NCBI GenBank assembly: GCA_965224465.1
Contig: OZ245049.1
Span: 4,890,001-4,922,000, forward strand
DNA from: Flavobacteriaceae bacterium
Lineage (GTDB): Bacteria > Bacteroidota > Bacteroidia > Flavobacteriales > Flavobacteriaceae
Length of the DNA stretch: 32,000 nt
Direction of reading: 5' to 3'
Made by a program: the position numbers and the translations under genes. This document shows, in pieces, positions 5,171 through 32,000 of the stretch (its first letter is position 1; the number at the start of each line of letters is the position of its first letter). Under the pieces are notes generated by a model. That model did no database searches. It had not been told where the DNA came from and saw nothing but the letters and a program-made list of their open reading frames with translations.

Positions 5171-5413
5171 ATAGCGCCCAGCATAAACATTCTATTGCAG
5201 ATGCCAACTCAAAACAGGATACTATGGGGATTACGCGTAATTAATTAAGAGGCTAGCGACAAATACCTTAATAGATATCACTTGTTTTAGGTTATTTGTT
5301 AATGAATTGATTTGTACGATTTTTAGATACGAATAAGTATTGGTCAGTAGCGTTTTGGTATTCGTTTCCCATTACGTGACTACGTTTTTTTTTGTTCGCA
5401 TATTTGTACATGC

Positions 5414-15006: not shown

Positions 15007-15270
15007 ATGATTGGAGTTCTAAAAACGATAGTATACTTATTTGTATTTTACTATATTTTTAAATTTATAGGAAAATTCATCATGCCTTTGATTTTTAAAA
15101 AGGCGGTGTCTACTATGGAAAAAAAATACAAAGCACAGCAAGGACAATCTTCTTATTCAGAACCTAAAGTAAAAGAAGGTGAGACTGTGATTGATAAAAA
15201 GCCAAGCCCAGAAAAGAAGAGTAATAATGTAGGAGAATATATAGATTTTGAAGAGCTAAATGATGAATAA
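15007..15270 (+). CDS. Small membrane protein (DUF4834-like)
   Basis: 87 aa: one N-terminal TM helix, then a charged, low-complexity tail. It overlaps the downstream gene start by 11 nt. Confidence 0.45.
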   Translation: MIGVLKTIVYLFVFYYIFKFIGKFIMPLIFKKAVSTMEKKYKAQQGQSSYSEPKVKEGETVIDKKPSPEKKSNNVGEYIDFEELNDE

Positions 15271-17698
15271 TATATTTTTTAAAAAACTGTTTCCGTACCT
15301 TATTTCTCTCGTTGTTTTTGCGTTAGTGTCCATTATTTATTTTTATCCAGTATTGGAAGGGAAAAAAATAGAACAAAGCGATATCAAACAGTTTATCGGG
15401 ATGTCTAAGGAAATTGTAGATTATAGAGCCGAATATGGCGCTGAACCGTATTGGACCAATGCTGCGTTTGGAGGAATGCCTTCCTATCAAGTGAGTACCT
15501 ATTATCCAAATGATTTTGTTAAAAAAGTGGACGGATTCCTTCGCTTTTTACCACGCCCTGCAGATTATTTATTTCTGTATTTTCTTGGTTTCTTTATCCT
15601 ATTACTAACCCTTAAATGTGATTGGAAAATTGCCTTAATTGGTTCCTTAGCTTTTGGTTTTTCTACCTATTTTATTATTATTTTAGGAGTAGGTCACAAT
15701 GCAAAAGCACATGCTATAGGATATATTCCAATGGTGTTAGCAGGTATCTTATTGGTGTTTCAGAAAAAGTATTTATGGGGTTTTATGCTCACTTCCATAG
15801 CGATGGCGTTGGAAATAAATGCGAGCCATCCTCAAATGACGTATTATTTATTGTTCTCAGTACTTATTTTAGGTATTTTTAAATTGATAGAAGCACTGCG
15901 TGCAAAAGAGCTTTCGGTATTATTCAAACAAGTAGGGGTATTACTAATTGCTGTTGTACTTGCTATTGGTACCAATGCGTCTAGTTTGATGGCAACAAAA
16001 GAATATGTTGCACATAGTACTAGAGGGAAAAGCGATTTGACTATTGACGTAGATGGCAGTCCTAAGAAACAAACCAGTGGACTCTCAAAGGAATATATTA
16101 CAGCATATAGTTACGGGAAATTAGAAACATTTAACTTGTTTATTCCTCGATTTATGGGAGGGGCGAGTGTAGAAAATCTGGGGACAGATTCTCATATCTA
16201 TAATTTTTTAAAAGGTAAGGTAGCTCCTAGACAAGCAATGGATTGGTCAGATAGAGCTCCAACTTATTGGGGGGAGCAGCCCGGGGTTGCTGCACCAGCT
16301 TATATTGGCGCTGTTTTTATATTTCTTTTTATTGTAGGATTATTTCTAGTGCATGGCCCTTTAAAACAATGGTTGTTAGCTTCCGTAATCTTTTTTATTG
16401 TTTTGAGTTGGGGTAAGAACTTTGCGTTTTTAACCGACTTTTTTATCGATTATGTTCCCTTGTATTCCAAATTTAGAGCGGTTTCTTCCATGCAAGTTTT
16501 GGTGGAAATTGCGATTCCATTGTTAGGGATACTCGGTTTAAAAGAGCTATTCTCTAAAGAGATCCCTAAGGAGAAGAAACAATTTGCCATTAAGTATTCG
16601 CTATTAATTACAGGTGGTTTTGCAGCTGTATTTACCTTGTTTGGCTCGTTTATCTTTGATTTTATTGGCGCAAATGATGGTCAATATGATAAAATGCTGC
16701 CAGGATTGTCTGAGGCGATTCAATCAGATCGAATAGAAATGTTTTTTTCTGATAGTTTAAGAACATTGCTTTTGATAATTGCTACTGCTGGGGTACTTTG
16801 GATGTTTTTAAAAGAAAAGATAAAACGTGATGTTGCCATTGTAATTATTGGGGCATTGTTATTATTTGATTTGTCTACGGTGGCTTATAATTATGTAAAT
16901 GCAACTAATTTTGTGACGGCAAGAAAAGTTGATAAACCATTTGTAGCAAGTGCTATTGATAAAGAAATATTAAAAGATACGAGTTATTATAGAGTTGCTA
17001 ATTTAGCTGGAAACCCTATGAATGATGGGGCAACTTCTTATTTTCATAAGTCTATTGGTGGTTATCACGCTGCCAAGCCAGGGCGTTATCAAGAATTGTA
17101 TGATTATCATATTGCCAACAATAATATGGAAGTGTTAAATATGTTAAACACCAAATACTTTATGTTTATTGGGGGGGATGACCGTTTAAATGCACAACAG
17201 AATTTTGAAGCTAATGGCAATGCTTGGTTTGTTTCCAATATTCATTTGGTAAGGACTGCGAATGATGAAATAATGGGCTTGAAAAAAGGTGTATTTAATT
17301 CTAAAACAGATGTAGTTATCAATCAAAATCAATACAAACCTGCATCTTTAATAATTCCTGTTGATAGTACTGCTATTATCAAATTGACGCATTATAAAGC
17401 GAATGAATTACAGTATAAATCAAGTGCTAAAAGCCCTCAGCTTGCCGTGTTTTCAGAAATGTATTACCAACCTGGATGGAATGCGTATATAGATGGTGAG
17501 CTAACATCTCATTTTAGAGTAGATTATGTCCTAAGAGGAATGGAAATCCCTACAGGTAATCACGATATTGTGTTTAAATTTGAACCTTCAGTAATTAAGA
17601 CTGGTGGAACTATTAGTTTGATTAGTTTTGTGTTGATGTTACTTATTTCAGGGGCTTGGTTTTTTATTGAAAAACGAAAAAAAACGAAATCAGTATGA
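15260..17698 (+). CDS. YfhO-like polytopic membrane protein (putative glycosyl/glycan transferase of envelope polymer)
   Basis: 812 aa with about 12 or more predicted TM segments in the first 550 aa, a large C-terminal extracytoplasmic domain and a final TM. It is operon-linked to glycosyltransferases. Confidence 0.6.
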   Translation: MMNNIFFKKLFPYLISLVVFALVSIIYFYPVLEGKKIEQSDIKQFIGMSKEIVDYRAEYGAEPYWTNAAFGGMPSYQVSTYYPNDFVKKVDGFLRFLPRPADYLFLYFLGFFILLLTLKCDWKIALIGSLAFGFSTYFIIILGVGHNAKAHAIGYIPMVLAGILLVFQKKYLWGFMLTSIAMALEINASHPQMTYYLLFSVLILGIFKLIEALRAKELSVLFKQVGVLLIAVVLAIGTNASSLMATKEYVAHSTRGKSDLTIDVDGSPKKQTSGLSKEYITAYSYGKLETFNLFIPRFMGGASVENLGTDSHIYNFLKGKVAPRQAMDWSDRAPTYWGEQPGVAAPAYIGAVFIFLFIVGLFLVHGPLKQWLLASVIFFIVLSWGKNFAFLTDFFIDYVPLYSKFRAVSSMQVLVEIAIPLLGILGLKELFSKEIPKEKKQFAIKYSLLITGGFAAVFTLFGSFIFDFIGANDGQYDKMLPGLSEAIQSDRIEMFFSDSLRTLLLIIATAGVLWMFLKEKIKRDVAIVIIGALLLFDLSTVAYNYVNATNFVTARKVDKPFVASAIDKEILKDTSYYRVANLAGNPMNDGATSYFHKSIGGYHAAKPGRYQELYDYHIANNNMEVLNMLNTKYFMFIGGDDRLNAQQNFEANGNAWFVSNIHLVRTANDEIMGLKKGVFNSKTDVVINQNQYKPASLIIPVDSTAIIKLTHYKANELQYKSSAKSPQLAVFSEMYYQPGWNAYIDGELTSHFRVDYVLRGMEIPTGNHDIVFKFEPSVIKTGGTISLISFVLMLLISGAWFFIEKRKKTKSV

Positions 17699-18882
17699 AT
17701 ATAGGAATGGTATTGGACAAAACGTTTCCTCCTGATCCAAGAGTCGAGAATGAAGCGATTTCTTTAATTAAAGCTGGGCATACAGTCTATTTGTTTTGCC
17801 TTACTTATGGACAAGAACTCCTAGAAGAAGATATAAATGGAATTCTTGTAAAAAGGTATGCATCCAATAAACTGACCTATAAATTTTCGGCATTGGCTTA
17901 TACAGTACCTGTTTATTCGATGCTTTTAAAAGGCGATATAAAGCAGTTTTTGATTGCTTTTTCTATTGATGTCATTCATATTCATGATATGCGTATTGCA
18001 GAAGCAGTTTTTTGGGCAAATGCATCGTTAAATTTACCAACGGTTCTGGATCTACATGATAATATGCCAGAAATATTAAAGTATTACCCACATACTCAAA
18101 ATTTCCCTGGAAAGTATTTGATTTCTTCTAAGAAATGGAAACAAAAAGAAGAAGAATTTATTAAAAAAGCGAGCAAGGTTATTACTGTTTCTAACGAGTT
18201 TATACAGGAGGTTGTAAGCAGAACAGCTATTTCTCTAGATAAGATTAAACTTGTTCCAAATACGGTGTTATCTTCTTTTTATGAGGATGCCGTAATTGAT
18301 CAAAAAATTATTGACAGGTATAAAAATAATAAAGTGTTGTTATACCTTGGTGATACAGGGTTGCGAAGAGGATTGCAGACAGTAATCGAAGCCATACCTA
18401 TTTTAAAAGAAAATTTCCCTGAGGTGAAATTAGTAATTGTAGGAAAAAATTCTTCAGACCAAGTATTGAAAGACCAAGTGGAATCTTTGGGCTGTTCGGA
18501 GTTTGTAGATTTTGAAGGTTGGAAAAACGTTTCCTTATTTCCTTCTTATATTATGGCGAGTACAGTGTGTTTGTCGCCATTGCATCGAAACATTCAACAT
18601 GATGTAGCTTATGCCAACAAATTGTTTCAATACATGAGTTTTGAGAAACCATTGCTTGTTAGTAATGCCACAGCTCAAAAGACATTGATAGAAAGGACGG
18701 AAACAGGTTTGGTACACGAGGAGCGGAATGCTGCTGATTTTGCTGAAAAAACAACATCTCTCTTTAATGATGAACAACAGCGCTTAAGGATGGGAGTCAA
18801 TGGGAAATCGTTTATTGTGAATGAGTTTTGTTGGGAAAAAGCATCTGGAAATTTAATTGATTTATACGAAACCATTTTATAG
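17695..18882 (+). CDS. Glycosyltransferase family 4 (GT-B, group 1)
   Basis: 395 aa. The C-terminal GT1/GT4 signature region has the E-x7-E-like motif (FEKPLLVSNATAQKTLIERTETGLVHE). ATGA overlap with the upstream gene. Confidence 0.8.
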   Translation: MNIGMVLDKTFPPDPRVENEAISLIKAGHTVYLFCLTYGQELLEEDINGILVKRYASNKLTYKFSALAYTVPVYSMLLKGDIKQFLIAFSIDVIHIHDMRIAEAVFWANASLNLPTVLDLHDNMPEILKYYPHTQNFPGKYLISSKKWKQKEEEFIKKASKVITVSNEFIQEVVSRTAISLDKIKLVPNTVLSSFYEDAVIDQKIIDRYKNNKVLLYLGDTGLRRGLQTVIEAIPILKENFPEVKLVIVGKNSSDQVLKDQVESLGCSEFVDFEGWKNVSLFPSYIMASTVCLSPLHRNIQHDVAYANKLFQYMSFEKPLLVSNATAQKTLIERTETGLVHEERNAADFAEKTTSLFNDEQQRLRMGVNGKSFIVNEFCWEKASGNLIDLYETIL

Positions 18883-20177
18883 TGATTAAAGTACTTATCA
18901 TAACATATTATTGGCCACCAGCAGGAGGTTCTGGAGTGCAGCGTTGGTTAAAATTCGTGAAGTATTTGCGTGGTTTTGGTATAGAGCCTGTCGTGTTTAC
19001 TGTTGCGCAACCTTTGTATGCTTTAAAAGATGATGCGCTAATAGAGGAAATACCGAAAGGTATTGAAGTATTGAGGCAAGCTATTTGGGAGCCAAATCAA
19101 TTGTTTTCATTTTTAGGAAAAAAAAACAAAGATGTCAGTGCTGGGTTTTTAAATCCAAATCCTTCTTTTTCTGGTAGGGTGATGCACTATATACGTGCGA
19201 ATTACTTTATTCCAGATGCACGGAAGTTTTGGGTGAAGCCTTCTGTTAAGAAATTAACAGAATACCTTTCTAATAATAAGGTAGATCTTATCATTTCTAC
19301 TGGGCCACCTCATAGTGTGCATTTGATTGCTAAAACCTTGAAAAATACAAGTCAAATTCCATGGATTGCGGATTTTAGAGATCCATGGACAGCCATTGAT
19401 TATTTCCATCAGTTGCCTTTGACAAAAGCATCAAAGAGGCGTCATTTCCAATTAGAAAAAGAGGTGGTTCAAACAGCAAATGCGGTTGTAGTTGTCGGTA
19501 AAACGATGCAGAAATCTTATTTAAAATTAAATCAAAATACCCATGTAATTTACAATGGCTTTGATACTTCTTCTGAACAAGAACATTCAGTTTCTTTGGA
19601 TAAAGAATTTAGCCTAACGCACATTGGATTGATGAATAATGATAGAAATCATTTGATTTTATGGCAAGTTATAGCGGAGTTATCTGAGGAGAATAGGGGA
19701 TTTAAAAATGATTTTAAACTCAAACTAATAGGTAAAGTAGCTCCAGAAGTACGGCGTTCTATTAAAGAGTTTGGATTGGAGGATTTGGTAGAAATAATTG
19801 ATTATGTTCCGCACAGTCAAGTCTTGGAATACCAGGAAAGATCTCAAGTACTATTGCTTTCTGTAAATAATGTGCCTAGTGCAAAAGGGATTTTAACAGG
19901 CAAGATTTTTGAATATTTGAATGCGAATAGACCTATTGTAGCTCTTGCGCCAACCGATGGTGATTTGGCAGCTGTTTTATCAGATTGCAATGCTGGAGCA
20001 TGTATTGGTTTTAAGGATAAAATAGCATTAAAGGAAAGGCTGTTGGACTTGTATCAGAAGTATAAAAAAGGAACCCTGAGTTGTTCTACAAAAAACATCA
20101 AACAGTTTCATAGAAAATCGTTGACAGAAACATTGTCAAAATTAATTTGTACTTTAGTACAAGACACTAAAAAATAA
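18882..20177 (+). CDS. Glycosyltransferase (GT-B fold, group 1-like)
   Basis: 431 aa with a GTG start overlapping the upstream TAG. N-terminal YYWPPAGGSGVQRW and C-terminal KIFEYLNANRPIVAL are typical of GT4-like enzymes. Confidence 0.7.
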   Translation: MIKVLIITYYWPPAGGSGVQRWLKFVKYLRGFGIEPVVFTVAQPLYALKDDALIEEIPKGIEVLRQAIWEPNQLFSFLGKKNKDVSAGFLNPNPSFSGRVMHYIRANYFIPDARKFWVKPSVKKLTEYLSNNKVDLIISTGPPHSVHLIAKTLKNTSQIPWIADFRDPWTAIDYFHQLPLTKASKRRHFQLEKEVVQTANAVVVVGKTMQKSYLKLNQNTHVIYNGFDTSSEQEHSVSLDKEFSLTHIGLMNNDRNHLILWQVIAELSEENRGFKNDFKLKLIGKVAPEVRRSIKEFGLEDLVEIIDYVPHSQVLEYQERSQVLLLSVNNVPSAKGILTGKIFEYLNANRPIVALAPTDGDLAAVLSDCNAGACIGFKDKIALKERLLDLYQKYKKGTLSCSTKNIKQFHRKSLTETLSKLICTLVQDTKK

Positions 20178-20184
20178 CATTTAC

Positions 20185-21267
20185 TTGAAAAAAATCGTGA
20201 CTATATTAGGGGCTAGACCTCAGTTTATAAAAGGGGCTGTATTGAGCAGAGAAATTGCTAAAAGCAAGACTATAGACGAAGTTATTGTACATACGGGTCA
20301 GCATTACGACACCAATATGAGCGCTGTTTTTTTTGAAGAAATGGACATTCCTACACCTGCGTATTTTTTAAATATAAACGGCTTGTCACACGGTGCAATG
20401 ACTGGGCAGATGTTGGAAGAGATAGAGAAGATTTTAATAATTGAAAAGCCAGATGCAGTAGTGGTGTTTGGAGATACCAACTCTACATTGGCAGGAGCTT
20501 TGGCAGCAAAGAAACTAGGAATTAAACTGGTTCATATAGAGGCTGGTTTGCGCTCTTTTAACATGCAGATGCCAGAGGAGATAAACCGTATTCTTACCGA
20601 TAGAATTTCTGATTTATTGCTTTGTCCAACACAACAAGCAATGGGTAATTTACAGAAAGAAGGTTTTGGGGATCTAGAAAATATAACTTGTAAGAGTGGC
20701 GATATCATGAAAGATGCTGTCTTTTATTACAGTCAGTTTTCTGAGGAAAAATCTACCATCTTAAAAACGTTAGGTTTATGCGATACTCCTTATGTTTTAG
20801 CTACCATTCATCGCCAAGAAAACACAGATGATATCAGTAAATTAAAAGCAATATTTGAAGGTTTAGAGACTATTTCAAAAAAGGAAAAAGTAGTAATGCC
20901 CTTACATCCTAGAACTAGGGCGGTGTTGGAAAAACAGGGGTTGACCTATAGTGTTTTATTTATTGATCCTGTCGGGTATTTTGATATGATGGAATTGTTG
21001 AAGCATTGTTCTGTTGTGGTAACAGATAGTGGAGGTTTGCAAAAAGAAGCCTTTTTTCATAAAAAACATTGTGTAATAGCACGTACAGAAACAGAATGGG
21101 TAGAACTGGTATCACATGATTTTGCAATGGTGGTTGGTAGTGATACAAAAAAAATAGAAGCATCGTATGTTTATTACAAGCTTAAAAACAGTGATTTTTC
21201 TATGAATCTTTTTGGAGATAATATTGGAAGTTCTATTGTTAAATCAATAGAAGAATTAATAGCGTAA
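20185..21267 (+). CDS. wecB: UDP-N-acetylglucosamine 2-epimerase (non-hydrolysing)
   Basis: 360 aa. GARPQFIK, VHTGQHYD, GDTNSTLAGALAA, HIEAGLRSFN, PEEINR and TDSGGLQKEA are all canonical WecB motifs. TTG start. Confidence 0.9.
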   Translation: MKKIVTILGARPQFIKGAVLSREIAKSKTIDEVIVHTGQHYDTNMSAVFFEEMDIPTPAYFLNINGLSHGAMTGQMLEEIEKILIIEKPDAVVVFGDTNSTLAGALAAKKLGIKLVHIEAGLRSFNMQMPEEINRILTDRISDLLLCPTQQAMGNLQKEGFGDLENITCKSGDIMKDAVFYYSQFSEEKSTILKTLGLCDTPYVLATIHRQENTDDISKLKAIFEGLETISKKEKVVMPLHPRTRAVLEKQGLTYSVLFIDPVGYFDMMELLKHCSVVVTDSGGLQKEAFFHKKHCVIARTETEWVELVSHDFAMVVGSDTKKIEASYVYYKLKNSDFSMNLFGDNIGSSIVKSIEELIA

Positions 21268-21279
21268 TTTAGCATTTGG

Positions 21280-22758
21280 ATGGGCATCATAATCAAACAA
21301 TCTTTTACAAACACTATTGTTATCCTTTTTGCTTTTGCAATTGGGGCTGTGAATACCTTATGGTTTTATCCTCGTTTTTTGCAAGAGGAGTATTATGGTT
21401 TGGTTACTTTTTTATTGTCGAGTTCAAACTTATTGATGCCTTTAATTGCTTTTGGTGTTCAGTATACGATTATTAAATTTTATGCGTCCTATTCAGATAA
21501 GATAGCGCAGGATAAGTTTTTATTAACCATGCTTGCCTTTCCTTTATTTGTAGCAATTCCTTTTGGTTTTATAGGAAATTTATTTTACGAAACATTGTCA
21601 GATTGGTTGTCAATAAAAAATGCAATTGTAAAAGAGTACACGTTTATTATTTATTTAATTGCCCTAGCAACGGCTTATTTTGAAGTTTTTTATGCTTGGT
21701 CAAAAGTTCAATTACAATCGGTATTTGGTAATTTGTTAAAGGAGATATATCCACGATTGATTGTTTTTCTCTTGTTGATTGGTTTTAGCTTCGAATTTTT
21801 TACAAAAACTACCTTTATTTATTTATTGACAGCGGGCTATTTTATACGGCTTGTTTTGATGATGTGCTACGCGTTTTATTTAAGAAAGCCTGTGTTTACT
21901 TGGGGAATTCCTCCAAACTTAAAAGATGTAATACGTTATTCTTTGTATGTGATTTTAGCGGGTTCAGCAGGAACTATTTTACTAGATATAGACAAAGTGA
22001 TGTTGCCTCAACACGAAGCTATTGCTATTACTGCCTATTATTCTGTTGCTTTATATATCGGATCTGTTGTAGAAATGCCAGGGAGAGCAATGTCTCAAAT
22101 TGTGAATCCTATTACTGCCTTGGCAATAAACGAAAACAAGTGGGCTAAGATTGCAGCATTGTACAAACAGACTTCTATAAATTTAATGCTTGTTTCTGGA
22201 TTGCTTTTTGTGCTGATCAACGTAAATATTAAACAGTTATATGTTTTCTTGGAATCGATATTGGATACATCAAATTATACAATGGGAATTCCTGTTGTTT
22301 TGATGATTTCTCTCTCCAAATTATACCACATGATTTTGGGGAATAATGGCGCTATTATTTCTAATTCTAAAAAGTATAAGATTTTATTGCCTTATGCTGT
22401 ATTAATGGCTTTGAGTGTTTATTTTTTAAATAGATATTTGATCCCAAAGATAGGGATGAACGGGGCTGCCTTATCTACTTTTATAGTTGTATTTGTATTT
22501 AATACTGTAAAGTTATGGTATGTTAAGCAAACGTTTGGCTTTTCTCCTTTTAGTAAAAAATCAATACAGTTGTTGCTGCTATTGGTTTTGTTTTATTTTG
22601 GATTTGTTTTTTGGGAATTTAACTTTCATCCCATTGTCAATATACTATGTAAAAGTACAATAGTAACTGTTTTATACTTGGTTCTTGTGTACGTTTTGAG
22701 TATTTCTAAGGATTTGAATGGCTATTTGAAATCACATTATAAAAAGAGTGTTTTATAA
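21280..22758 (+). CDS. Polysaccharide biosynthesis protein / Wzx-type flippase (MOP superfamily)
   Basis: 492 aa, about 12-14 TM helices throughout, located at the end of the glycosyltransferase block. Confidence 0.72.
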   Translation: MGIIIKQSFTNTIVILFAFAIGAVNTLWFYPRFLQEEYYGLVTFLLSSSNLLMPLIAFGVQYTIIKFYASYSDKIAQDKFLLTMLAFPLFVAIPFGFIGNLFYETLSDWLSIKNAIVKEYTFIIYLIALATAYFEVFYAWSKVQLQSVFGNLLKEIYPRLIVFLLLIGFSFEFFTKTTFIYLLTAGYFIRLVLMMCYAFYLRKPVFTWGIPPNLKDVIRYSLYVILAGSAGTILLDIDKVMLPQHEAIAITAYYSVALYIGSVVEMPGRAMSQIVNPITALAINENKWAKIAALYKQTSINLMLVSGLLFVLINVNIKQLYVFLESILDTSNYTMGIPVVLMISLSKLYHMILGNNGAIISNSKKYKILLPYAVLMALSVYFLNRYLIPKIGMNGAALSTFIVVFVFNTVKLWYVKQTFGFSPFSKKSIQLLLLLVLFYFGFVFWEFNFHPIVNILCKSTIVTVLYLVLVYVLSISKDLNGYLKSHYKKSVL

Positions 22759-23595: not shown

Positions 23596-24099
23596 ATGAT
23601 TGAAGCGATTGTAAATAATCTATTTAGAGGGGTTAAATTATTAGAAAGCATGAGTGATGAGACCTATTCGGATACTTCTATAGCTCCGTATTATTCGAGT
23701 ATAGGTGTACATATGAGGCATGTTTTGGATGTTTTTGAGTGTATTTTTGATGGGATTGAAATGGGTAAAGTAGATTTATCAGCACGCAAGCGTATGGAAT
23801 TGGCAGAACTTAAAACCGAGGATGGAATTGCGTATTTTCAAAAGATTATAACCAATTTATATGCCGTACAGTCAGATAAATTTGATCAGTTAATTCTTGT
23901 GTCTGATGATTTAGGTCAGGGCGTTGTAACGGTAAAGTATACCATTGCAAGTGCATTAGCTCAAGCACATAGCCACGCAATTCATCACTTTGCAAGCATT
24001 GGGTATATTATTGCTCAATTAGATATTGAGTTGCCAGACAATGATTTTGGATACAATCCTACAACACCTAGAAATGCTAAAACCAAATCTAATAAGTAA
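23596..24099 (+). CDS. DinB-family (four-helix-bundle, metal-binding) protein
   Basis: 167 aa with the histidine triad spacing typical of the DinB fold (HMRHVLD ... HSHAIHH). Confidence 0.6.
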   Translation: MIEAIVNNLFRGVKLLESMSDETYSDTSIAPYYSSIGVHMRHVLDVFECIFDGIEMGKVDLSARKRMELAELKTEDGIAYFQKIITNLYAVQSDKFDQLILVSDDLGQGVVTVKYTIASALAQAHSHAIHHFASIGYIIAQLDIELPDNDFGYNPTTPRNAKTKSNK

Positions 24100-25261
24100 C
24101 GTATATCCAGCCTTTTAATATTTTTGAGTTGTCGTTTAAACGAAGGATATAGAAATAAGTTCCCGTAGGTAATTTGTTGTTTTTGGCTAAGGTGAGACTG
24201 TTCTTAGATACCCCATTCCATGTATTGTTATAGTTTTTCTTTTTATAGATTAGAGATCCCCATCTATTGTATATGATAAGTTCGTTATTATTATATAAAT
24301 GTAAATCATCAAATACTAATATATCATTTTTACCATCGTTATTAGGAGTAATCGCAAAATTTAAATTTCCAGAGTTAACATCTGTTGTTAAAACTCCTCT
24401 TAGGTCACTACCAATAGTAAGAACCTCATAATTGTTTGGGATAAATGATTTGGATTGTATACTTCCAGCATTTAGATCTCCAGAAATTGCGGTATTTCCT
24501 AAATCTACCCATTTATCTGTTGTTTTGTCCCATCCTACAACACGTAATCTTGAAAGTATTGGGCTCAGAGTTGGGATATCGCTTACGTCATCCCAAGTTA
24601 AGGTTACCATTGTTTCTTCGGTACCGTCAAAGTCCCAGAATTCTAATTGAGTTACTTTTGATATCGTTTTTTCTATCTTATTTGTGTCAAATGGATTGTT
24701 AAATATAGAGGGTGTATTTGGGTTTTCGAAAAAATAGGCTGCTTTAAAGTACGGGCTTATTTTTTGAGTTGGAATTAAAAGTGGTCTTAATCGATCATCA
24801 TCACCTATGGGAAAAGTAAAAGCATCGTTGCCTAGTGTCAATGCATATCCATCGATATAATTTTGATTGTTCTCTCCAGCATAGAATGAGTTTTCTAGGT
24901 AATTAAAACGAATGGAATTAGTAGCTCTTGGCGTACGTATTTTTCCGTTGATAAACGACATAGAATTTTTTAGATCTACAGAGGTCTGTAATACCAAATC
25001 ATTTTTAACATCAATTTCTAAATCATGGAAAGCAGCAATATTACTTCCTGATATTGTTAATGTTTCAGTGTCGCTGTAAAAACCAACGCTCCCTAGATTT
25101 TGATTGAAGGTGCCTTCGTTGATTAGGTTTGTATGAATCCCAACAGTTGCGTTTTTATGTAGTTGCATATTTCCGTGTACAGCCAAGGCTTCTTGTGCCT
25201 TTATTCCAATAGTGGTACAGGTAAATAGTAACGATAAATATATAGATAGCTGGAGTTTCAT
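24089..25261 (-). CDS. Secreted protein with T9SS type-B sorting (gliding-motility-associated) C-terminal domain
   Basis: Signal peptide. The C-terminal ~90 aa (FAITPNNDGKNDILVFDDL...IYNRWGSLIYKKKNY...WNG...LPTGTYFYIL) matches the CHU_C/type-B T9SS CTD pattern. Confidence 0.85.
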   Translation of the reverse strand: MKLQLSIYLSLLFTCTTIGIKAQEALAVHGNMQLHKNATVGIHTNLINEGTFNQNLGSVGFYSDTETLTISGSNIAAFHDLEIDVKNDLVLQTSVDLKNSMSFINGKIRTPRATNSIRFNYLENSFYAGENNQNYIDGYALTLGNDAFTFPIGDDDRLRPLLIPTQKISPYFKAAYFFENPNTPSIFNNPFDTNKIEKTISKVTQLEFWDFDGTEETMVTLTWDDVSDIPTLSPILSRLRVVGWDKTTDKWVDLGNTAISGDLNAGSIQSKSFIPNNYEVLTIGSDLRGVLTTDVNSGNLNFAITPNNDGKNDILVFDDLHLYNNNELIIYNRWGSLIYKKKNYNNTWNGVSKNSLTLAKNNKLPTGTYFYILRLNDNSKILKGWIYVTY

Positions 25262-25567: not shown

Positions 25568-26458
25568 TTAATCAAAAATAGAATACATAAATCCGGAATC
25601 AAATTTACTTCTATCTGTTCCTCCATTGTCGTTGTCACCAATACGTACTTTAAAACCTGTTGTTTGTTGGTCGTAATACGCAATTCCTGGATCGTCATTT
25701 CCAGCTCCATTTCTGCTTGGCTGGGTGAGTTGAATGATGTAGTTGGCGTCACTCATCGCTGTGGTAAACGTTATTTGATATTGACCGAGGCTACTAGGGA
25801 TTTTAGAGACCGTTGCGTTCTTTATTTTTGCAGCAGTTCCATCTGCATTAATTTTCCCATAAGATTTTAGAGGATTATTATAGTAGATACCGTTGTCTGT
25901 ACCTGCTTGCAAATTGTTGTTAGCATCAGAACTGATCATTGCACTAGGACTGATCCATTCTGTACCTGAATTTGTTGAGCTGAGTAGTTGCCCTGTTGTT
26001 CCTGGAGTATTATTAGAGTCGATATAACTTCCTGTCACCGCAATGTTTCCTGTTACTTTTGTATCATTCAAAAGAAGTATACCATTGGTTCCTTTAATTC
26101 TAGTGGTGTTAGCTGCATCTATCTCAATACTGTTTTGAGATGTGATTCTAAAGTAATTAGAAGTAGTAAAATAGATTTCCGAAAATTTATCAAACCAAAG
26201 ATAGTTTGTAGTAACACCTCTCACGTATCTATTGTTTGTGATTTGACCATCGTTGGTATAGATGTTCGTGTTCGGAATATTGGATAAAGGGTGGTAAACA
26301 CCATTTGTAAGTCCTATGTATATAGTACCACTGGAATCTTTATATAAATCTCCTTCACCAGCATTCATACTACTAATGTCTGCAGCGGTTATTAAACTTT
26401 GTCCATAAGAAAATACGCTTCCCAATAGGATTGTTATTATGCAAAAAATGTTTTTCAT
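25568..26458 (-). CDS. Secreted tail-fibre-like protein, short paralogue (296 aa)
   Basis: Signal peptide MKNIFCIITILLGSVFSYGQ. N-terminal AGEGDLY...IYIGLTNGVYHPL module is shared with the 520- and 716-aa neighbours. The middle module VTGNIAVTGSYIDSNNTPGTTGQLLSSTNSGTEW...DANNNLQAGTDNGIYY is shared with the 716-aa protein. The C-terminal domain is shared with the 520-aa protein. Confidence 0.75.
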   Translation of the reverse strand: MKNIFCIITILLGSVFSYGQSLITAADISSMNAGEGDLYKDSSGTIYIGLTNGVYHPLSNIPNTNIYTNDGQITNNRYVRGVTTNYLWFDKFSEIYFTTSNYFRITSQNSIEIDAANTTRIKGTNGILLLNDTKVTGNIAVTGSYIDSNNTPGTTGQLLSSTNSGTEWISPSAMISSDANNNLQAGTDNGIYYNNPLKSYGKINADGTAAKIKNATVSKIPSSLGQYQITFTTAMSDANYIIQLTQPSRNGAGNDDPGIAYYDQQTTGFKVRIGDNDNGGTDRSKFDSGFMYSIFD

Positions 26459-26597
26459 AGCAAATGTGTATGTACTTTAAATATAATGCACATATTATTT
26501 TGCAAAGGTATAAAAAAAAAAGGAAATGATGTTTAGAATTGCTTCATCGGGATTCGTTTTTTTCTTTATTCTCTTAAAATCTAATGGTACTATACTA

Positions 26598-26747
26598 AAT
26601 ACATTTTCAAGTGCTCGGTTTAGAAATGGAATTATTTTTTGTTTTAGCTAGGCGATAAATCTAAGGATAGCCTTAGCTATCGTTCTGTTTTTTAACAACG
26701 TTGGAACGTAAAATCAGCTATTTATATCGGTTATTTGAGATTGTAAT
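26598..26747 (+). repeat. Dispersed ~150-bp intergenic element, full-length copy
   Basis: AAATACATTTTCAAGTGCTCGGTTTAGAAATGGAATTATTTTTTGTTTTAGCTAGGCGATAAAT..GGATAGCCTTAGCTATCGTTCTGTTTTTT...CTATTTATATCGGTTATTTGAGATTGTAAT. Same hairpin stem (GATAGC/GCTATC) with a different loop compared with 11214-11363. Confidence 0.85.
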
Positions 26748-26809
26748 TGGTGTAAAATAAGACATGTCTTTTGGATGATGCGATTCCTGTTTTTTAAAAC
26801 GTATCGGTT

Positions 26810-26856
26810 AGCATAAGACAAGGGATAATTTCACTTAAAATCCCTTGTCTTATGCT
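26810..26856 (-). terminator. Strong stem-loop immediately downstream of the 520-aa fibre-like gene (probable terminator/RNA-stability hairpin)
   Basis: 16-bp perfect inverted repeat AGCATAAGACAAGGGA / TCCCTTGTCTTATGCT with a 15-nt loop, starting 8 nt after the stop codon. No canonical U-tract follows on the minus strand, so terminator function is inferred. Confidence 0.5.
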
Positions 26857-26863
26857 TAAAAAC

Positions 26864-28426
26864 TTAATTTAAACTAACATTTGTTATGACTTCTTTGGTG
26901 GACGTAACATTAAAATACCATGTAGAGTCTACGTAAGTGTCTGCTGTTCCTCCATTATCTCCAGTTGTTATTTCTATTGTAAAACCATCTGCATCTTGGT
27001 TTAATACTTGAATGTTTCTTCCATCTCTATCAGTATTCCCTTTATAACCAAACGTAATGTCGTAATAATAGCCGTTTGGATGCGGGCTTGTGAAAAGTAC
27101 AGAATACCTACCTGGATCTGTACGTGTAATACTTGCATCGGTAACATTGATATTATATCCGTTATTTAATCCGTCCCAGTTCACATGGGATGCAGCAAAA
27201 ATATAACCGATAGTTTCCTTTGTTACATTTAGCGTTGGAGTAGTGGTAGTGGTGTTAGAATTGTTGATCTGTTGCCATTTACTTCCGTCACTTTGCAATA
27301 GCAAGATGCGATTAGGTAAGAGTGTCGAAATTTCATTTCCAAACGCATCTACATAATTGTTCACAGTAATACTATTACTAGTAGGGTTTTTTATGATGTA
27401 ATTTCTCCCAGTTGTTATTGTTGCATCTGGTAGTGTAATGCTATGATTTCCACCAATTATTAGCGTGTGATGATCTTCTGATAAGGTTAAGCTTTGTGTT
27501 GTCGTAAAAATACTTGTAGAGATAGAACCATTTACTTGTAGCGTGGAATTTGCGATGTTATATCCAATATTGGCATCGTCACCATAATCGGTAACTATGG
27601 GTCTAGCTACAGGATTTATATTAATTCCAAACCTTGTTTTAGCATCTGCACTGTTACTGCTTCCTTGAACTCTGAATAGTTCTGAATGTGATTTGCTATT
27701 TCGATAGTCATAGCGCTTAAATATAATTGGTTCTGCACCATCATCTCCTATTATAAATTCTAAGCGTCCTTCATTTAGAGGACCCGCAGAACCTATTTCA
27801 AATAAATCGGATTTTCCAGAACTTCCTTTTAAACGAAAACTTCCATTGGTGGTTGTAAAAAACATGGGCTTGTAAAAATCAGCTTCAGAAGCCGCAAATT
27901 GTAATGCAGCTGTATTTCCATCTCCATTTAAATGTACAATTGCTTGATCGCTATTGTCATAATCTAAATAGGCAGCGACCAATCCTAAGGTCGCTCTTCG
28001 CCCAAATTCTAACATGGGTAAATTATTGGAGCGAATTTGCATCTTAGTGTCGTTGATGGTTCCTAAAAAATGAGCACCGCCCGGTGTAGGATTATTTCCA
28101 CTTAATAACCAATTGGTGTTTCCTGTTAAATTATCTACATATTGTTTGGTAGCAGCATCGTTTGGATTTATGGGCAATGCTAAGTTTGTTATTTTTAGGT
28201 TATTGGCGTCATTTGCTTGTTCCAATATTTCTTTTAAATTTTTATTGATAGGGTGGTAGCTGCCATTACTGAGTCCTATATAAATTACATGACTTGTTTC
28301 ATGTATGTATAGGTCTCCTTCTCCTGCATTGATTCCTGCCAAGACTTCAACATTTGTAACTGTTTTTTGAGCGGTTGTTATACCGATTCCTAAAATAGAA
28401 AAAATAATAATAAGTAAGTGTTTCAT
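26864..28426 (-). CDS. Secreted tail-fibre-like protein, 520 aa
   Basis: Signal peptide MKHLLIIIFSILGIGITTAQ. The N-terminal ~140 aa is homologous to the 716-aa protein (AGEGDLY, NKNLKEILEQANDANNLKITNL, DAATKQYVD, WLLSGNNPT..FLGTINDT). The C-terminal ~90 aa is homologous to the 296-aa protein. Confidence 0.75.
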   Translation of the reverse strand: MKHLLIIIFSILGIGITTAQKTVTNVEVLAGINAGEGDLYIHETSHVIYIGLSNGSYHPINKNLKEILEQANDANNLKITNLALPINPNDAATKQYVDNLTGNTNWLLSGNNPTPGGAHFLGTINDTKMQIRSNNLPMLEFGRRATLGLVAAYLDYDNSDQAIVHLNGDGNTAALQFAASEADFYKPMFFTTTNGSFRLKGSSGKSDLFEIGSAGPLNEGRLEFIIGDDGAEPIIFKRYDYRNSKSHSELFRVQGSSNSADAKTRFGININPVARPIVTDYGDDANIGYNIANSTLQVNGSISTSIFTTTQSLTLSEDHHTLIIGGNHSITLPDATITTGRNYIIKNPTSNSITVNNYVDAFGNEISTLLPNRILLLQSDGSKWQQINNSNTTTTTPTLNVTKETIGYIFAASHVNWDGLNNGYNINVTDASITRTDPGRYSVLFTSPHPNGYYYDITFGYKGNTDRDGRNIQVLNQDADGFTIEITTGDNGGTADTYVDSTWYFNVTSTKEVITNVSLN

Positions 28427-28510
28427 ATTTATTAATTTTAATGGATATGTTTATTTTTAATTAGATTAACATATTTGATCTAGGAATTTGTTTTTAGTAG
28501 TTATTAAGGT

Positions 28511-30661
28511 TTAAATGCCAGTTGGTGTAGCGCATACATCAAAACTCCAACCGCCTGAAATGCTATTGTTTGTTTCTGTCTTACAATTTGTATTCCCAAA
28601 AGAATACATTTCAAAAGAATAAGTTCCTATAGGAAGTTTATATTTTCTACTAGCACTGCAGGTGTCTGCAATGAATAGTGTTGGAGAAAATTTACCGTTT
28701 AGATGTGAAGGTAAATCGTTTATAGACGTCATTTGGTTTATTAGAGTGGTGCTTCCCGTAATATAGACTAATACACCTCTAAAATTATTGACTTTATCAA
28801 GTTTTTCAATGGTATAGGTAAAAATATAATCAAGAGATACAATACTTTCTTCTTCTAATGTTAGGGTGAGTTTAGAGACGAGTTCGTTATTATTTAACTG
28901 AGACCATGCCTGAGTACCGGAACTTTCAGATGTTAAGAGTTGTAATGTTTTTTCTTTTCTGTAAATTCCGTTGTCCGTTCCTATTACGATACTATTATTT
29001 GCATCATTACTTATTAGAGGACGCCAAGCTGTTCCAGTACCTGTAGAAGAAAGAATATCATTTGTGGCACCTGGGCTGGTACTACTGTCTATATAGCTTC
29101 CAGATACGGAAAGGTCTCCGGTGACTTGCGTATTGTTTTGTAATTGAATACCTGTTGCTCCAGCTATTTGGATATTGCCTGCTGTGGATCTTAGTTGAAT
29201 CAAGTTTTCACCAAAGGTCCTAAAATTTTTAAAATTATTAATTAAGGTCGTACCTATATTAGTTATTGTTGAAGAACTATTTGTAATGGTTGAACTACTA
29301 TTGGTCGTGATTGATGCACTGTTCGTGATAGTTGTACCACTGTTAGTTATGGTTGTCCCAGTATTGACTATAGTTGCAGCAGTACTTGTTATCGTTGGAG
29401 CTTTATTGGATATGTTAGTTTCAGCTTCATTTTCTATTTTTGTTACTTTAAATAGAAGTCGTTTTATCCCTCTGAAATATAAATTATTTTTATTTCCATA
29501 AAGAGTTCTGTGGGATGTAAGCGTCCCATTGGATATAAATATATTGGATGATGAATTATTAATCCATTTTGTACCAACATTTGTTGAACTTAATATTTGC
29601 CCTGCGATTCCTCTATCTCCTTGACTATCTCTCAGTATTTTTTTTACCCAAAGGTTTTCTTCAAAAGTACTGTTGTCATAAAAAAGAATACCAGATGAAC
29701 CCCACATTTGTGTATAACCAGCAGATGTGTTTATTTGTGTATTACCTGTAGCAGTAAGTAACAGGCTAGAGGAATCAATTGAATAGTTATTAATGGCACT
29801 AAACGATAGGTCGTTATTTTGTCCTTTTAGGCTTCTATTTGAAGTTAAAAGGCCACTGGTATTGTAAATGTTTTTTGAAGAGTTTTGTGTAACCCAATCA
29901 GTACCCGTTGCTGTAGAACTTAATATCTGTCCAGAAATTCCTGCATCACCGTCTTTATCTTTAAAGGCGTTGTTTACTTGTAGGTCTCCTGCAATATGTA
30001 GTTTTGCTTGTGGGTCGGTTGTATTTATTCCTATATTTCCGCCACTTTTTAAAAACAATCGAGAATTAAAAACACCAGATTCTTCAAAGTTTAGTCCGTT
30101 GGGGAGTAGGTTCCAATCCCATTTTGCGACTCCTGAAGCGTCCTCAAATGCTAATACTTCGTTTCCGTTTGCTCTTAGTACCAAAGGATGATCTTTATAG
30201 GTTGTTGCTTGGTTTATGAGTACCTGGCCTTTATTATTTACCAGTCGTAATTTTTCTACGCTATTTGATTTTAAAATAAGGTCTTGAGCATTTGTAGTCC
30301 CAATATAATTAGCATTTGTCGTAGGCGTATTTCCTGTTAATTTCCATGCTTTATTATTTGAAATATCTACGTATTCTTTGGTGACAGCATCTTTAGGATT
30401 TGTAGGGGTACCTAGGTTTGTTATTTTTAGAGCATTCGCATCATTTGCCTCTGCTAAAATTTCTTTTAAATTCTTATTTATAGGTTGAAAAGTACCATCA
30501 GTGAGTCCAATATAAATAATATTGGTAAACTTGTGTTTGTAGAGGTCTCCTTCTCCTGCATCTTTTGCAGCTATGTTGATGTTTGTTATTTCTTTTAAAT
30601 TCTGTGCAGTTGTATTTGTAATAGTAAAGAATAAAAGAATAAGGGGTATAACGTATTTCAT
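28511..30661 (-). CDS. Secreted tail-fibre-like protein, 716 aa, with internal repeats
   Basis: Signal peptide MKYVIPLILLFFTITNTTAQ. Motifs DAVTKEYVD, WKLTGNTPT..YIGTTNAQDLILKSN and GGNIGINTTDPQAKLHIAG. Three copies of G-x-x-G/N-Q/D-ILSST-x-x-GT-x-W. Eight TITNSxx heptads. Unique Cys-containing C-terminal domain. Confidence 0.78.
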   Translation of the reverse strand: MKYVIPLILLFFTITNTTAQNLKEITNINIAAKDAGEGDLYKHKFTNIIYIGLTDGTFQPINKNLKEILAEANDANALKITNLGTPTNPKDAVTKEYVDISNNKAWKLTGNTPTTNANYIGTTNAQDLILKSNSVEKLRLVNNKGQVLINQATTYKDHPLVLRANGNEVLAFEDASGVAKWDWNLLPNGLNFEESGVFNSRLFLKSGGNIGINTTDPQAKLHIAGDLQVNNAFKDKDGDAGISGQILSSTATGTDWVTQNSSKNIYNTSGLLTSNRSLKGQNNDLSFSAINNYSIDSSSLLLTATGNTQINTSAGYTQMWGSSGILFYDNSTFEENLWVKKILRDSQGDRGIAGQILSSTNVGTKWINNSSSNIFISNGTLTSHRTLYGNKNNLYFRGIKRLLFKVTKIENEAETNISNKAPTITSTAATIVNTGTTITNSGTTITNSASITTNSSSTITNSSSTITNIGTTLINNFKNFRTFGENLIQLRSTAGNIQIAGATGIQLQNNTQVTGDLSVSGSYIDSSTSPGATNDILSSTGTGTAWRPLISNDANNSIVIGTDNGIYRKEKTLQLLTSESSGTQAWSQLNNNELVSKLTLTLEEESIVSLDYIFTYTIEKLDKVNNFRGVLVYITGSTTLINQMTSINDLPSHLNGKFSPTLFIADTCSASRKYKLPIGTYSFEMYSFGNTNCKTETNNSISGGWSFDVCATPTGI
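29246..29401 (-). repeat. In-frame 21-bp imperfect tandem repeat (eight heptads of consensus T-I-T-N-S-x-x, the last degenerate) inside the 716-aa gene
   Basis: The translation reads TITSTAA TIVNTGT TITNSGT TITNSAS ITTNSSS TITNSSS TITNIGT TLINNFK. The nucleotide copies are diverged. Confidence 0.8.
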
Positions 30662-30925
30662 GATTAAAAACTTATTAGGGATAAAATTTTTTGGGATAGT
30701 TTTTTTTTGATGGTTAGATCAAATTTAGGAATCGGGTAGATAAAGTAAATGATTCCTGTTGTTATTGTTTGTTATTGATTTGTATATATGTAATCTTAAG
30801 TTTAATCTAAAAAATGAATCAGTAGTGAAAAATAGATATGTAATCGGGGTAATTAATATCTAAGATAATAAGGATAACCTTTGTTTGTTATAAAGGGTAT
30901 TGCTACTTTTTTTTAGACTTTAAAT

Positions 30926-30961
30926 AAAAAAAAGGGTGCATTGTCTAATGCACCCTTTTTT
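30926..30961. terminator. Bidirectional rho-independent terminator after the 3' end of the partial fibre-like gene
   Basis: A8-GGGTGCATT-GTCT-AATGCACCC-T6. A 9-bp GC-containing stem flanked by A- and T-runs, 5 nt downstream of the stop at 30966. Confidence 0.88.
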
Positions 30962-30965
30962 AAAA

Positions 30966-32000
30966 TTATATTTTTTCTATTAGAAGAGATGATCCATTTT
31001 GTTTGGTTGTTAAGTTAGCAGCTCCGCTATATCTATAACCTCTAACGGTTAGTACATCACCTGCATTCAATGCCATAATTTTTGTCATTGTAGCAGTAGT
31101 TCTGTTGATGTATCTATTTCTGTGATAGTTCGAACTATAGGTTCCTGGTACTACAGCTCCTCCTTTTAATAAAATATATTCAGACCCTGTACGGTTGTTA
31201 GAATTGTCTGATATTGTCAAAGTAACTCTATAAGTAACTTTGTAATTTCCAGCAACTTTTGGAGAAATAGAATTGCTTGTAAGTGTATAACCACTAGCAG
31301 AAACATCACTTATTGGTTCAATGTTTCCAAAAGTAATAATAACACCAGTAGTTTCTACATCAGAAGTTCCATCACCTGTAATGGTTGTGGTGTTTGCTGC
31401 AGCATCATATATTTCTGCTACAGAAGAGGTGAAAACGGTAGTTGCTACCCAGTTTCCTGTTCCTGCTAGAAGTGTCGGATCCCAAGCTAATACCTGCCCT
31501 GCAGTTGCACTGTTTTGATTGATGTCTTTTGCAAGTATAGTAGCATCTTTTATTTTACTAGTTGTAACAGCGTCTAGTGCTAAGTCACTGTTTTCAACAG
31601 CACCTGCGGCAATGTGTCCTGTTAGGATTCCATCTGCTTTTACTTGTAGTTTTGTAGCTGCTATTTCAATGGTTGCATTATCTACGTTTACATCTACTTT
31701 ATAATTACTAGCTGTAGTACCTGCACCTGCAACTGTTGTTGCATTACCATTGGCTAAGATAGTTTCTGAACCGTCGGCTGCTGTTACTTTTAAATCATAG
31801 TTAATTCCTGTAGGTGTAACTGTAACGGAACCGTCAGCAGAAGCTACTGTTTGGATTTCGTTAGTAGCGTTAGCATCACTGTCGTCTACATTTATTGTAA
31901 TGGCAGATTGTCCAGTTATTTTTATGTTTCCTGCGGTGTTATCTGTTGATAGGATTTGAGTTTCTGTTACTGTTAAAGTTGAAGGAGCAACAAGAATCCA
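30966..32000 (-). CDS. Large surface/fibre-like protein, 3' part only (reading frame open to the window edge), with C1q/TNF-like C-terminal head
   Basis: I translated the minus frame by hand from 31220 up to 31742 and found no stop. The ORF track's 84-aa entry only reflects the first in-frame TTG. The sequence is T/A/G/V-rich beta-repeat (..LQVKADGILTGHIAAGAVENSDLALDAVTTSKIKDATILAKDIN..GQVLAWDP..). The frame was not checked between 31743 and 32000. Confidence 0.7.
   Translation of the reverse strand, partial: WILVAPSTLTVTETQILSTDNTAGNIKITGQSAITINVDDSDANATNEIQTVASADGSVTVTPTGINYDLKVTAADGSETILANGNATTVAGAGTTASNYKVDVNVDNATIEIAATKLQVKADGILTGHIAAGAVENSDLALDAVTTSKIKDATILAKDINQNSATAGQVLAWDPTLLAGTGNWVATTVFTSSVAEIYDAAANTTTITGDGTSDVETTGVIITFGNIEPISDVSASGYTLTSNSISPKVAGNYKVTYRVTLTISDNSNNRTGSEYILLKGGAVVPGTYSSNYHRNRYINRTTATMTKIMALNAGDVLTVRGYRYSGAANLTTKQNGSSLLIEKI

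Follow-up and report, generated by a model that had tools for sequence, protein, structure and literature searches.

Phage-tail-fibre-type proteins with predicted signal peptides precede a conserved type-B C-terminal-domain protein on a Flavobacteriaceae chromosome

Background

Why does a bacterial chromosome carry a row of genes for proteins that resemble phage tail fibres and yet begin with signal peptides, and by what route might such proteins leave the cell? The question is raised by a stretch of 32,000 nucleotides (nt) from Flavobacteriaceae bacterium (assembly GCA_965224465.1, contig OZ245049.1, positions 4,890,001 to 4,922,000; hereafter “the window”), in which four co-oriented open reading frames (ORFs) occupy the minus strand from position 25568 to the window’s end, the fourth lacking its 5' part. 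A preliminary description, made from the sequence alone, had taken them for a recombining family of cell-surface fibres with a mosaic of common modules, and had stated that neither phage structural genes nor type IX secretion system (T9SS) C-terminal domain (CTD) signals accompany them. The layout on the minus strand was borne out by translation, and no phage structural gene was found; the statement about the CTD was wrong, because the adjoining gene (24089..25261) encodes a protein with a type-B CTD of the CHU_C family.

Algae and particles are colonised to a large extent by marine Flavobacteriaceae, a group to which fish pathogens such as Tenacibaculum also belong and whose surface recognition is poorly known. 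Current T9SS models place the CTD on the cargo itself, and an arrangement of separate fibres and CTD protein falls outside them. In the present manuscript, we propose that the window holds a chromosomal cassette of Sec-exported, probably trimeric, modular fibres of the phage-tail-fibre type together with one conserved CTD-bearing partner, through which the fibres would be exported or anchored, a reading that in our judgement could equally well prove right or wrong. The cassette occurs in dozens of genera, where it would tie phage-type receptor-binding modules to type IX secretion and anchoring.

Results

A conserved type-B CTD protein adjoins the fibre genes

The gene next downstream of the last fibre ORF, on the same strand (24089..25261), encodes a protein of 390 amino acids (aa), hereafter the partner, which matches CHU_C (PF13585) at 4.5e-26 (91 bits, cut-off 27) and TIGR04131 at 2.2e-13 (50.1 bits, cut-off 35). 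It comprises a signal peptide, an all-beta N-terminal region (residues ~25-288), a linker (289-298) and the type-B CTD (299-390; nt 24092-24367). The predicted signal peptide, MKLQLSIYLSLLFTCTTIGIKA followed by Q (cleavage between ..IKA and Q), is helical at residues 3-18 in an AlphaFold2 model whose predicted local distance difference test score (pLDDT) is 87, and the “AQ” is conserved in the family consensus. The CTD matches GhpA (PDB 9flp) at 2.7e-14, and the partner profile matched the PDB via the CTD only. From this domain, T9SS-dependent secretion of the partner is predicted. Neither the type-A (TIGR04183) nor the type-B (TIGR04131) CTD model matches any of the four window fibres, even at E ≤ 1.

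The partner has 547 homologues, in genera that include Tenacibaculum, Aquimarina, Lutibacter and Maribacter, and the 120 listed are 44-70% identical to it over nearly the full length. As judged from sequence comparison, it is far better conserved than the fibres; the 716-aa fibre has only 22 detectable relatives and the 296-aa fibre 92 homologues.

Fibre genes precede the partner gene across genera

Searching the GTDB species representatives with a profile of the 390-aa family yielded 562 relatives, and we analysed the best 80 loci (L011-L090), assigning an ORF to the fibre family when it matched the fibre set by BLASTP at E < 1e-5. The nearest upstream ORF lies on the partner’s strand in 77 of the 80 loci, and at least one fibre-family ORF is found on that strand within 8 kb upstream in 74. 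Matches to the fibre set account for 136 of 224 upstream ORFs versus 12 of 666 other ORFs, and most of these 12 stand directly downstream, as expected for the start of a further tandem unit. The partner is always a separate polypeptide, present twice per locus in some cases, and none of 262 fibre-side proteins matches the profile of its N-terminal region or of its CTD. Between loci and genera, the N-terminal 110 aa of the fibres are common to 15.5% of protein pairs and the C-terminal 110 aa to only 3.6%; with 122 ORFs, the “QVKIGDNP..ILELES..” type forms the largest N-terminal class and bears the precomputed Pfam label PTL_trimer.

Individual loci illustrate the arrangement. Tenacibaculum haliotis has fibres of 314, 235 and 645 aa followed by a 390-aa partner, T. 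jejuense has 2700, 521, 135, 637 and 240 aa followed by 383 aa, and Lutibacter holmesii has 341 (with collagen repeats), 247, 328 and 309 aa followed by 389 aa; Maribacter algarum carries two tandem units, and the fibre-to-partner unit is found in A. muelleri as well. Among contigs syntenic with the window, L001/L002 and L007 show 716-like, 520-like and 296-like genes, the CTD protein gene and then an opposite-strand DinB-like gene, and in L094 and L106 a 66%-identical partner comes directly after a 296-like gene and other fibre genes.

A signal-peptide protein of ~300-330 aa recurs between fibre genes of related loci (L001:3676-4602, L093:1842-2834, and upstream ORFs of L013, L014, L018 and L026), while the visible part of the window has none. 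It shows a weak match to the catalytic fold of alpha-L-arabinofuranosidase B (6.4e-5, below cut-off) and may belong to the system as an additional component.

The contig breaks off less than 10 kb from the partner gene on the upstream side in 39 of the 80 census loci, versus 20 of 80 on the downstream side, which suggests that short-read assemblies are often interrupted by the repetitive fibre genes; draft genomes therefore probably under-represent the fibre repertoires.

The fibres have a common N-terminus and a mosaic of stalks and heads

The complete fibre proteins have 296 aa (25568..26458), 520 aa (26864..28426) and 716 aa (28511..30661), all on the minus strand; of the partial ORF (30966..32000, minus strand) the 3' part is visible, 344 codons whose head ends in ...SSLLIEKI, and the sequence for the N-terminus falls outside the window. 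The complete proteins each begin with M-K, a hydrophobic stretch of 15-17 residues, a small residue and Gln (predicted cleavage after ..SYG in one of the three and after ..TTA in the two others), and residues 2-18 of the 296-aa protein form a helix in its AlphaFold2 model. When 15 paralogues and orthologues drawn from four related contig sets are aligned, every one has Gln at the +1 position of its predicted cleavage site. By the Bacteroidetes “Q-rule”, the mature N-terminus of signal peptidase I substrates is typically Gln, and the predicted N-termini of the fibres fit Sec-exported, signal peptidase I-processed proteins of this phylum.

The signal peptide is followed by the module AGEGDLY..IYIGL..G (the N-module), found in 15 of the 15 aligned sequences with A, G-D, G-L and G invariant. 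In the 716-aa protein, the signal peptide spans residues 1-19, the N-module ~27-62 and a stalk base 63-100, with repeats and a head (~600-716) after it. The 520-aa protein has signal peptide, N-module and stalk base followed by a core domain (residues 101-387, nt 27266-28126) and a C-terminal head (395-520, nt 26867-27244). In the 296-aa protein, a signal peptide and an N-module at residues 26-59 lead to one repeat of ~108 aa (63-170) and a beta-sandwich head (197-296, nt 25571-25870). None of the four window fibres matches a Pfam or NCBIfam family above threshold.

All-against-all BLASTP bears out the sharing of modules that had been described. The 520- and 716-aa proteins are 50% identical over residues 1-139/1-138 (E 8e-37), which covers the N-module and the longer stalk base, NLKEIL..ANDAN.LKITNL..P..DA.TK.YVD. 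The 296- and 716-aa proteins align over 68-277/446-649 (32% identity, E 7e-25), and what had been seen as a common middle module is more exactly a ~108-aa repeat ending in G..GQ.LSS...GT.W, with one copy in the former and ~3.3 in the latter, so that two further registers of the same pair match as well. The 296- and 520-aa proteins have a C-terminal head in common (106-294/308-507, 21% identity, E 2e-8), from which the heads of the 716-aa protein and the partial ORF differ.

The individual fibres have relatives of varied reach. Over its C-terminal 183 aa, the partial ORF shows 52% identity to the ORF that comes first in L001/L002; its residues 102-344 are 37% identical to a 681-aa protein of L007 that starts with signal peptide and N-module, and the first ORF of L093 matches it with 45% identity. 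Orthologues of the 716-aa protein have 535 aa in L001 (51% identity) and 523 aa in P0002 (65%), with fewer repeats, and L094 too carries the 523-aa form. Twelve homologues from other loci have the 520-aa core at 60-71% identity; the whole protein matches 31 loci in all and 1032 cluster representatives at E ≤ 1e-3, with sub-modules that turn up in varied positions.

The stalk-base stretch of the 520-aa protein (~40 aa, residues ~61-104, ending in DA.TK.YVD) is also found elsewhere in 6-33 tandem copies within very large proteins (P0305; P0307, 5398 aa; P0376, 3108 aa), and it therefore acts as a repeat unit in some proteins and as a single-copy module in others.

Stalk and head resemble phage tail fibres

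The preliminary description had likened the proteins to phage tail fibres, and this holds at the level of motif, domain and fold. The stalk base (..NLKITNL..P..DA.TK.YVD) matches PHROG tail families at 2.5e-6 and is 53-67% identical to annotated T7-like phage tail fibres over 24-32 residues, with marginal E-values. The 296-aa head matches phrog_3484 (2.4e-7) and phrog_11355, “tail fiber protein”, and shows 39% identity to that of a 262-aa tail-fibre ORF on the IMG/VR contig L092, a genuine phage with genes for head, virion-structural, other tail-fibre and DNA-ejection proteins as well. The AlphaFold2 monomer model of the 296-aa protein has a mean pLDDT of 80, with ~90 in the N-module, more than 90 in the head and low values in the stalk (residues 62-130). 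Foldseek finds 64 matches to this model in BFVD at E ≤ 1e-3 (best 6e-10), and many among the matches listed are cyanophage “tail fiber” proteins; in the PDB, it retrieves the phiAB6, Pam1, phi297 and LKA1 tailspikes, the R1 pyocin fibre and Helix pomatia agglutinin (probability 0.75-1.0). The likeness of the head to the last of these, an H-type lectin, is tentative (probability 0.75-0.85, E 0.1-0.3, target-normalised TM score ~0.45-0.5). Homology to phage fibres is established for the head that the 296- and 520-aa proteins have in common; the heads of the 716-aa protein and the partial ORF are uncharacterised beta-rich domains. No PDB sequence was matched by the 716-aa protein, by a PTL_trimer neighbour or by the 520 core profile. 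Because they are homologous to trimeric phage fibres, and because the stalk is disordered in the monomer model, the fibre proteins are likely to be trimeric.

The same likeness, in a cluster inside which the window ends, could also come from ordinary tail fibres of a phage, tailocin or extracellular contractile injection system, encoded by a prophage-like element beyond the window end. We regard this as very improbable. Syntenic contigs (L007, L001/L002, L093, L094) can stand in for the sequence beyond position 32000, and the closest long relative, L007, has nothing but fibre paralogues in the 10 kb upstream of its partner gene, seven complete genes that all encode the N-module and include the orthologue of the window’s partial ORF. 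The loci of T. haliotis, M. algarum and L. holmesii have housekeeping flanks on the sides covered by their contigs, and no phage genes were seen on the covered sides of these loci or of those of T. jejuense and A. muelleri. The signal peptides also tell against such an element, as does the near absence of matches, except for one head domain, from 50,697 phage genomes and IMG/VR: in these collections, the 520-aa protein has no match, the 716-aa protein has one short match in GenBank phages, and the partner matches one IMG/VR contig, via its CTD only.

Another reading takes the fibres for phage decoys, receptor mimics or a shield layer, a “hairy nap” like the BclA filaments of the Bacillus exosporium, and not for adhesins. 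The relatives in other bacteria, which end in Peptidase_S74 or Phage_tail_C or carry collagen repeats, lend it some colour, as some of them show sub-threshold BclA_C matches, and the diversity and exchange of heads resemble an arms race. Nothing specific speaks for it, however: the window proteins show no match to Collagen or BclA_C at E ≤ 1, and a lectin-like head would fit ligand binding equally well, so we hold this reading to be improbable. As to the functions that the preliminary description had offered, an adhesin is plausible, whereas the decoy and contact-dependent readings gain no specific support.

Two further candidates were rejected. A contact-dependent toxin would not account for proteins that have no toxin or immunity domains and whose heads are beta-sandwich or lectin-like, and a trimeric autotransporter is excluded by the lack of a membrane-anchor domain.

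Heads and stalks are exchanged between lineages

The related metagenome contig L093 carries a 388-aa ORF that joins a 716-type N-terminal half (65% identical to residues 2-257 of the 716-aa protein) to a 520-type head (66% identical to residues 376-520 of the 520-aa protein), the join falling directly after “...GTGTDW”. An adjoining 520-type ORF of the same contig (396 aa, 70% identical) stops just after “...SDGSDWQQIKSQ”, without a head. As a 520-type head here sits on a 716-type stalk, the sequences document cassette exchange between lineages. In L002, three extra genes lie between the orthologues of the partial ORF and the 716-aa gene.

The family had been described as recombining, and for exchange between relatives this comparison of loci agrees. 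It does not extend to ongoing recombination within the genome, because the modules in common are only ~50% identical as protein and, in the 5' parts of the 520- and 716-aa genes, at best 76% identical as DNA (over 165 nt). The paralogues are therefore old and not recent copies.

Transcription signals between the genes

A terminator-like hairpin of 15 pairs followed by a T-run (30928..30961, minus strand) stands directly 3' of the stop codon of the partial ORF, and a perfect 17-bp inverted repeat with a 13-nt loop (26810..26856, minus strand), just 3' of the 520-aa stop, may be another transcription-unit end. Boxes of the Bacteroidetes type, TAnnTTTG, occur 66 nt 5' of the 716-aa start and at -52 for the 296-aa gene. 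Owing to these hairpins and boxes between genes, the fibre cluster probably consists of several transcription units and not of one operon. A sigma-70 promoter scan returned fewer matches than in shuffled sequence; its consensus differs from that used by Bacteroidetes.

Separate promoter- and terminator-like elements would suit a view in which the fibres and the 390-aa CTD protein are independent proteins, co-located in a variable “adhesin island”, the fibres using a cryptic T9SS signal in their heads or leaving in outer-membrane vesicles. The uncharacterised, beta-rich heads of the 716-aa protein and the partial ORF could serve as such export signals, and Flavobacterium johnsoniae ChiA is a precedent for a non-canonical T9SS signal. 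Against this view, order and strand, with fibres first and CTD protein last, are kept in 74 of 80 species, and the whole unit is duplicated in tandem; moreover, the 296/520 head is homologous to phage receptor-binding heads and not to CTDs, with no CTD model match at E ≤ 1. We consider independence unlikely, if less so than the decoy reading.

Distant homologues of the partner stand in shuttle operons

Among the 77 loci in which downstream ORFs were scanned, a PorP_SprF gene follows the partner gene in only 10, all of them with distant homologues (26-33% identity) whose matches start at residues 1-85 and run to ~373-389. These loci belong to Flavobacterium, Winogradskyella, Pseudotenacibaculum and related genera. 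In at least four that were checked in full, a CTD-less fibre of 1300-1600 aa is followed by a type-B CTD protein of ~330-360 aa, a PorP_SprF protein and a PorE-like protein with PD40, CarboxypepD_reg and OmpA domains. In F. johnsoniae, five operons of this type combine a type-B substrate with an SprF-like shuttle and a PorE homologue, which have been proposed to form a static cell-wall-anchored complex (Commun Biol 2025, PMC12618676). Three “orphan” type-B substrates of the same species have an unlinked shuttle in common and are able to reach the gliding track (PMC12618676).

In L076-L089 (e.g., L077:5032-13967), the fibre heading the four-gene order is a large PTL-type protein without CTD, one of them with YadA-head repeats.

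The rest of the window

The remainder of the window is ordinary chromosome, with IS1595 and IS66 transposases, PPK2, an exonuclease, RsmE, LysE and a DinB-like gene. Annotation of the window ORFs found no phage genes, and the window contains neither tRNA genes nor Rfam matches.

Flanking the fibre cluster, at 15260-22758 on the plus strand, is a block encoding YfhO, two GT4 proteins, a UDP-GlcNAc 2-epimerase and a flippase, which is syntenic in L007 (13312-20809). This polysaccharide block might glycosylate surface components, fibres included. The DinB-like gene (23596-24099, plus strand, 167 aa) is convergent with the partner gene and has the same position in L001 (67% identical) and L007; T. 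jejuense has a 166-aa gene there, and a DinB-family gene lies directly downstream in at least 6 of the 77 census loci scanned. No functional link between this gene and the fibre system is evident.

Farther from the cluster, positions 8097-11099 (plus strand) encode a protein of 1000 aa in which a GH3 N-terminal domain (5.6e-76) is fused to a beta-lactamase-fold domain (3.2e-34). The IS66-family (2280-3743) and IS1595 (1051-1992) transposases are followed directly downstream by a nested tandem array without coding sequence (3772-5235); its unit of ~585 bp is present in ~2.5 copies (98% and 82% identical), each unit holds an internal duplication of 134 bp (93-94% matches), and the array has no Rfam or tRNA match.

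Discussion

How, then, might fibres that carry a signal peptide and no CTD be placed on the cell surface? The mechanism that we put forward is tentative, and we give it no more than even odds. The N-module that follows the signal peptide of the fibres would dock the fibre on the 390-aa partner, as suggested by the strict synteny, the common N-terminal end and the presence of the sole sorting signal on the partner. The partner’s CTD would then take the complex through the T9SS translocon, or else receive the fibre at the surface, and the complex would be passed to a PorP/SprF-type shuttle, unlinked here, as for the orphan substrates of F. johnsoniae; the CTD and the related operons point to this translocation and anchoring. 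At the distal end, the variable heads (tailspike- or H-type-lectin-like beta-sandwiches, and others) would bind different glycan or surface ligands, which for the lectin-like heads is suggested by their fold. In this way, the cell might gain a repertoire of fibres acting as adhesins or lectins, which exchange of stalk and head cassettes would reshuffle between lineages. We infer the coupling of fibres to partner; the surface location of the fibres, their route across the outer membrane and the type of ligand are likewise putative.

Several points weigh against an export or anchoring of the fibres via the partner. The weakest step would be the crossing of the outer membrane by a fibre without CTD, and we know of no established case of a CTD-less protein hitch-hiking through the T9SS. 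In the Foldseek search against the PDB, the 390-aa model, N-terminal region included, has no significant match, so the fold gives no independent hint of an adaptor role. No porP/sprF gene adjoins the 390-aa gene, whose downstream neighbour is the DinB-like gene on the opposite strand; by this context, the partner belongs to the “orphan” type-B substrates, and as a missing adjacent shuttle fits that class (PMC12618676), it does not tell against the partner being a type-B T9SS substrate. The separate promoter- and terminator-like elements do not speak for one operon. The N-module, finally, is restricted to a lineage: a census of its neighbourhoods, which the preliminary description had proposed, found AGEGDLY in only three further metagenome loci, two of them with the partner gene visible. 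Aligned by hhalign with PTL-type N-termini, the module falls in the expected register at a non-significant E of 0.19, and precomputed Pfam annotation gives no PTL_trimer (PF26696) for the window proteins (P0001, P0005, P0024), whereas neighbours and relatives in other genera carry it.

Our literature search (PF26696/PTL_trimer; tail-fibre-like T9SS-associated proteins) found no paper on a cassette of fibres and a small type-B-CTD protein. The boldest form of our reading is a split T9SS adhesin, in which a small, conserved type-B-CTD carrier would export and anchor interchangeable, CTD-less, phage-derived trimeric fibres that dock on it via the N-module; we judge it rather more apt to fail than to hold. 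If true, it would be the first piggy-back (hitch-hiking) secretion through the type IX system, and would reveal a domesticated tail-fibre repertoire for the recognition of cell-surface ligands across marine Flavobacteriaceae. If the coupling is real, it offers a directly testable example of T9SS co-export or adaptor-mediated display, would explain a large class of proteins annotated as “hypothetical” or “gliding motility-associated C-terminal domain”, and would make available a natural, exchangeable repertoire of heads, possible lectins among them.

Known systems resemble the locus in different parts. With phage tail fibres and tailspikes (T7 gp17-type; cyanophage and Flavobacteriia-phage heads; PHROGs 3484, 11355 and 1640), the window fibres have in common a conserved N-terminal end with variable heads, the ..NL..P..DA.TK.YVD motif, the fold and sequence of the head, and cassette exchange at conserved junctions. 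They differ in having signal peptides and a chromosomal setting without virion or baseplate genes, in being followed by a type-B CTD protein, and in an N-module that is no known baseplate- or adaptor-binding domain.

BclA filaments of the Bacillus exosporium are likewise trimeric, with a short conserved N-terminal attachment module, a stalk of variable length and a beta-sandwich head, and relatives of the window fibres in other genera add collagen stalks and weak BclA_C matches; the window proteins, however, are without collagen or BclA_C, and envelope and attachment machinery differ. Closer in secretion, the Aureispira grappling hook GhpA (9flp) is a Bacteroidota surface fibre with a T9SS type-B CTD that matches the CTD of the partner, but it is a single chain of 5898 aa, and the likeness is confined to that domain.

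SprB (sprC-sprD-sprB-sprF) is a T9SS surface filament of gliding Flavobacteriia and also has a type-B CTD (CTD and shuttle: PMC12618676). In contrast to the window locus, it is a single giant CTD-bearing repeat protein with no tail-fibre modules and no multi-paralogue repertoire of heads. Its operon also encodes CTD-less accessory proteins. The F. johnsoniae type-B operons share with the window a bona fide type-B CTD, the orphan-like state without adjacent shuttle and, through distant homologues of the partner, the order of CTD protein, PorP/SprF and PorE-like protein. There, however, the CTD protein is itself the putative adhesin (PMC12618676), whereas in the window locus a small, conserved protein bears the CTD, and the variable, CTD-less fibres are separate polypeptides encoded upstream of it.

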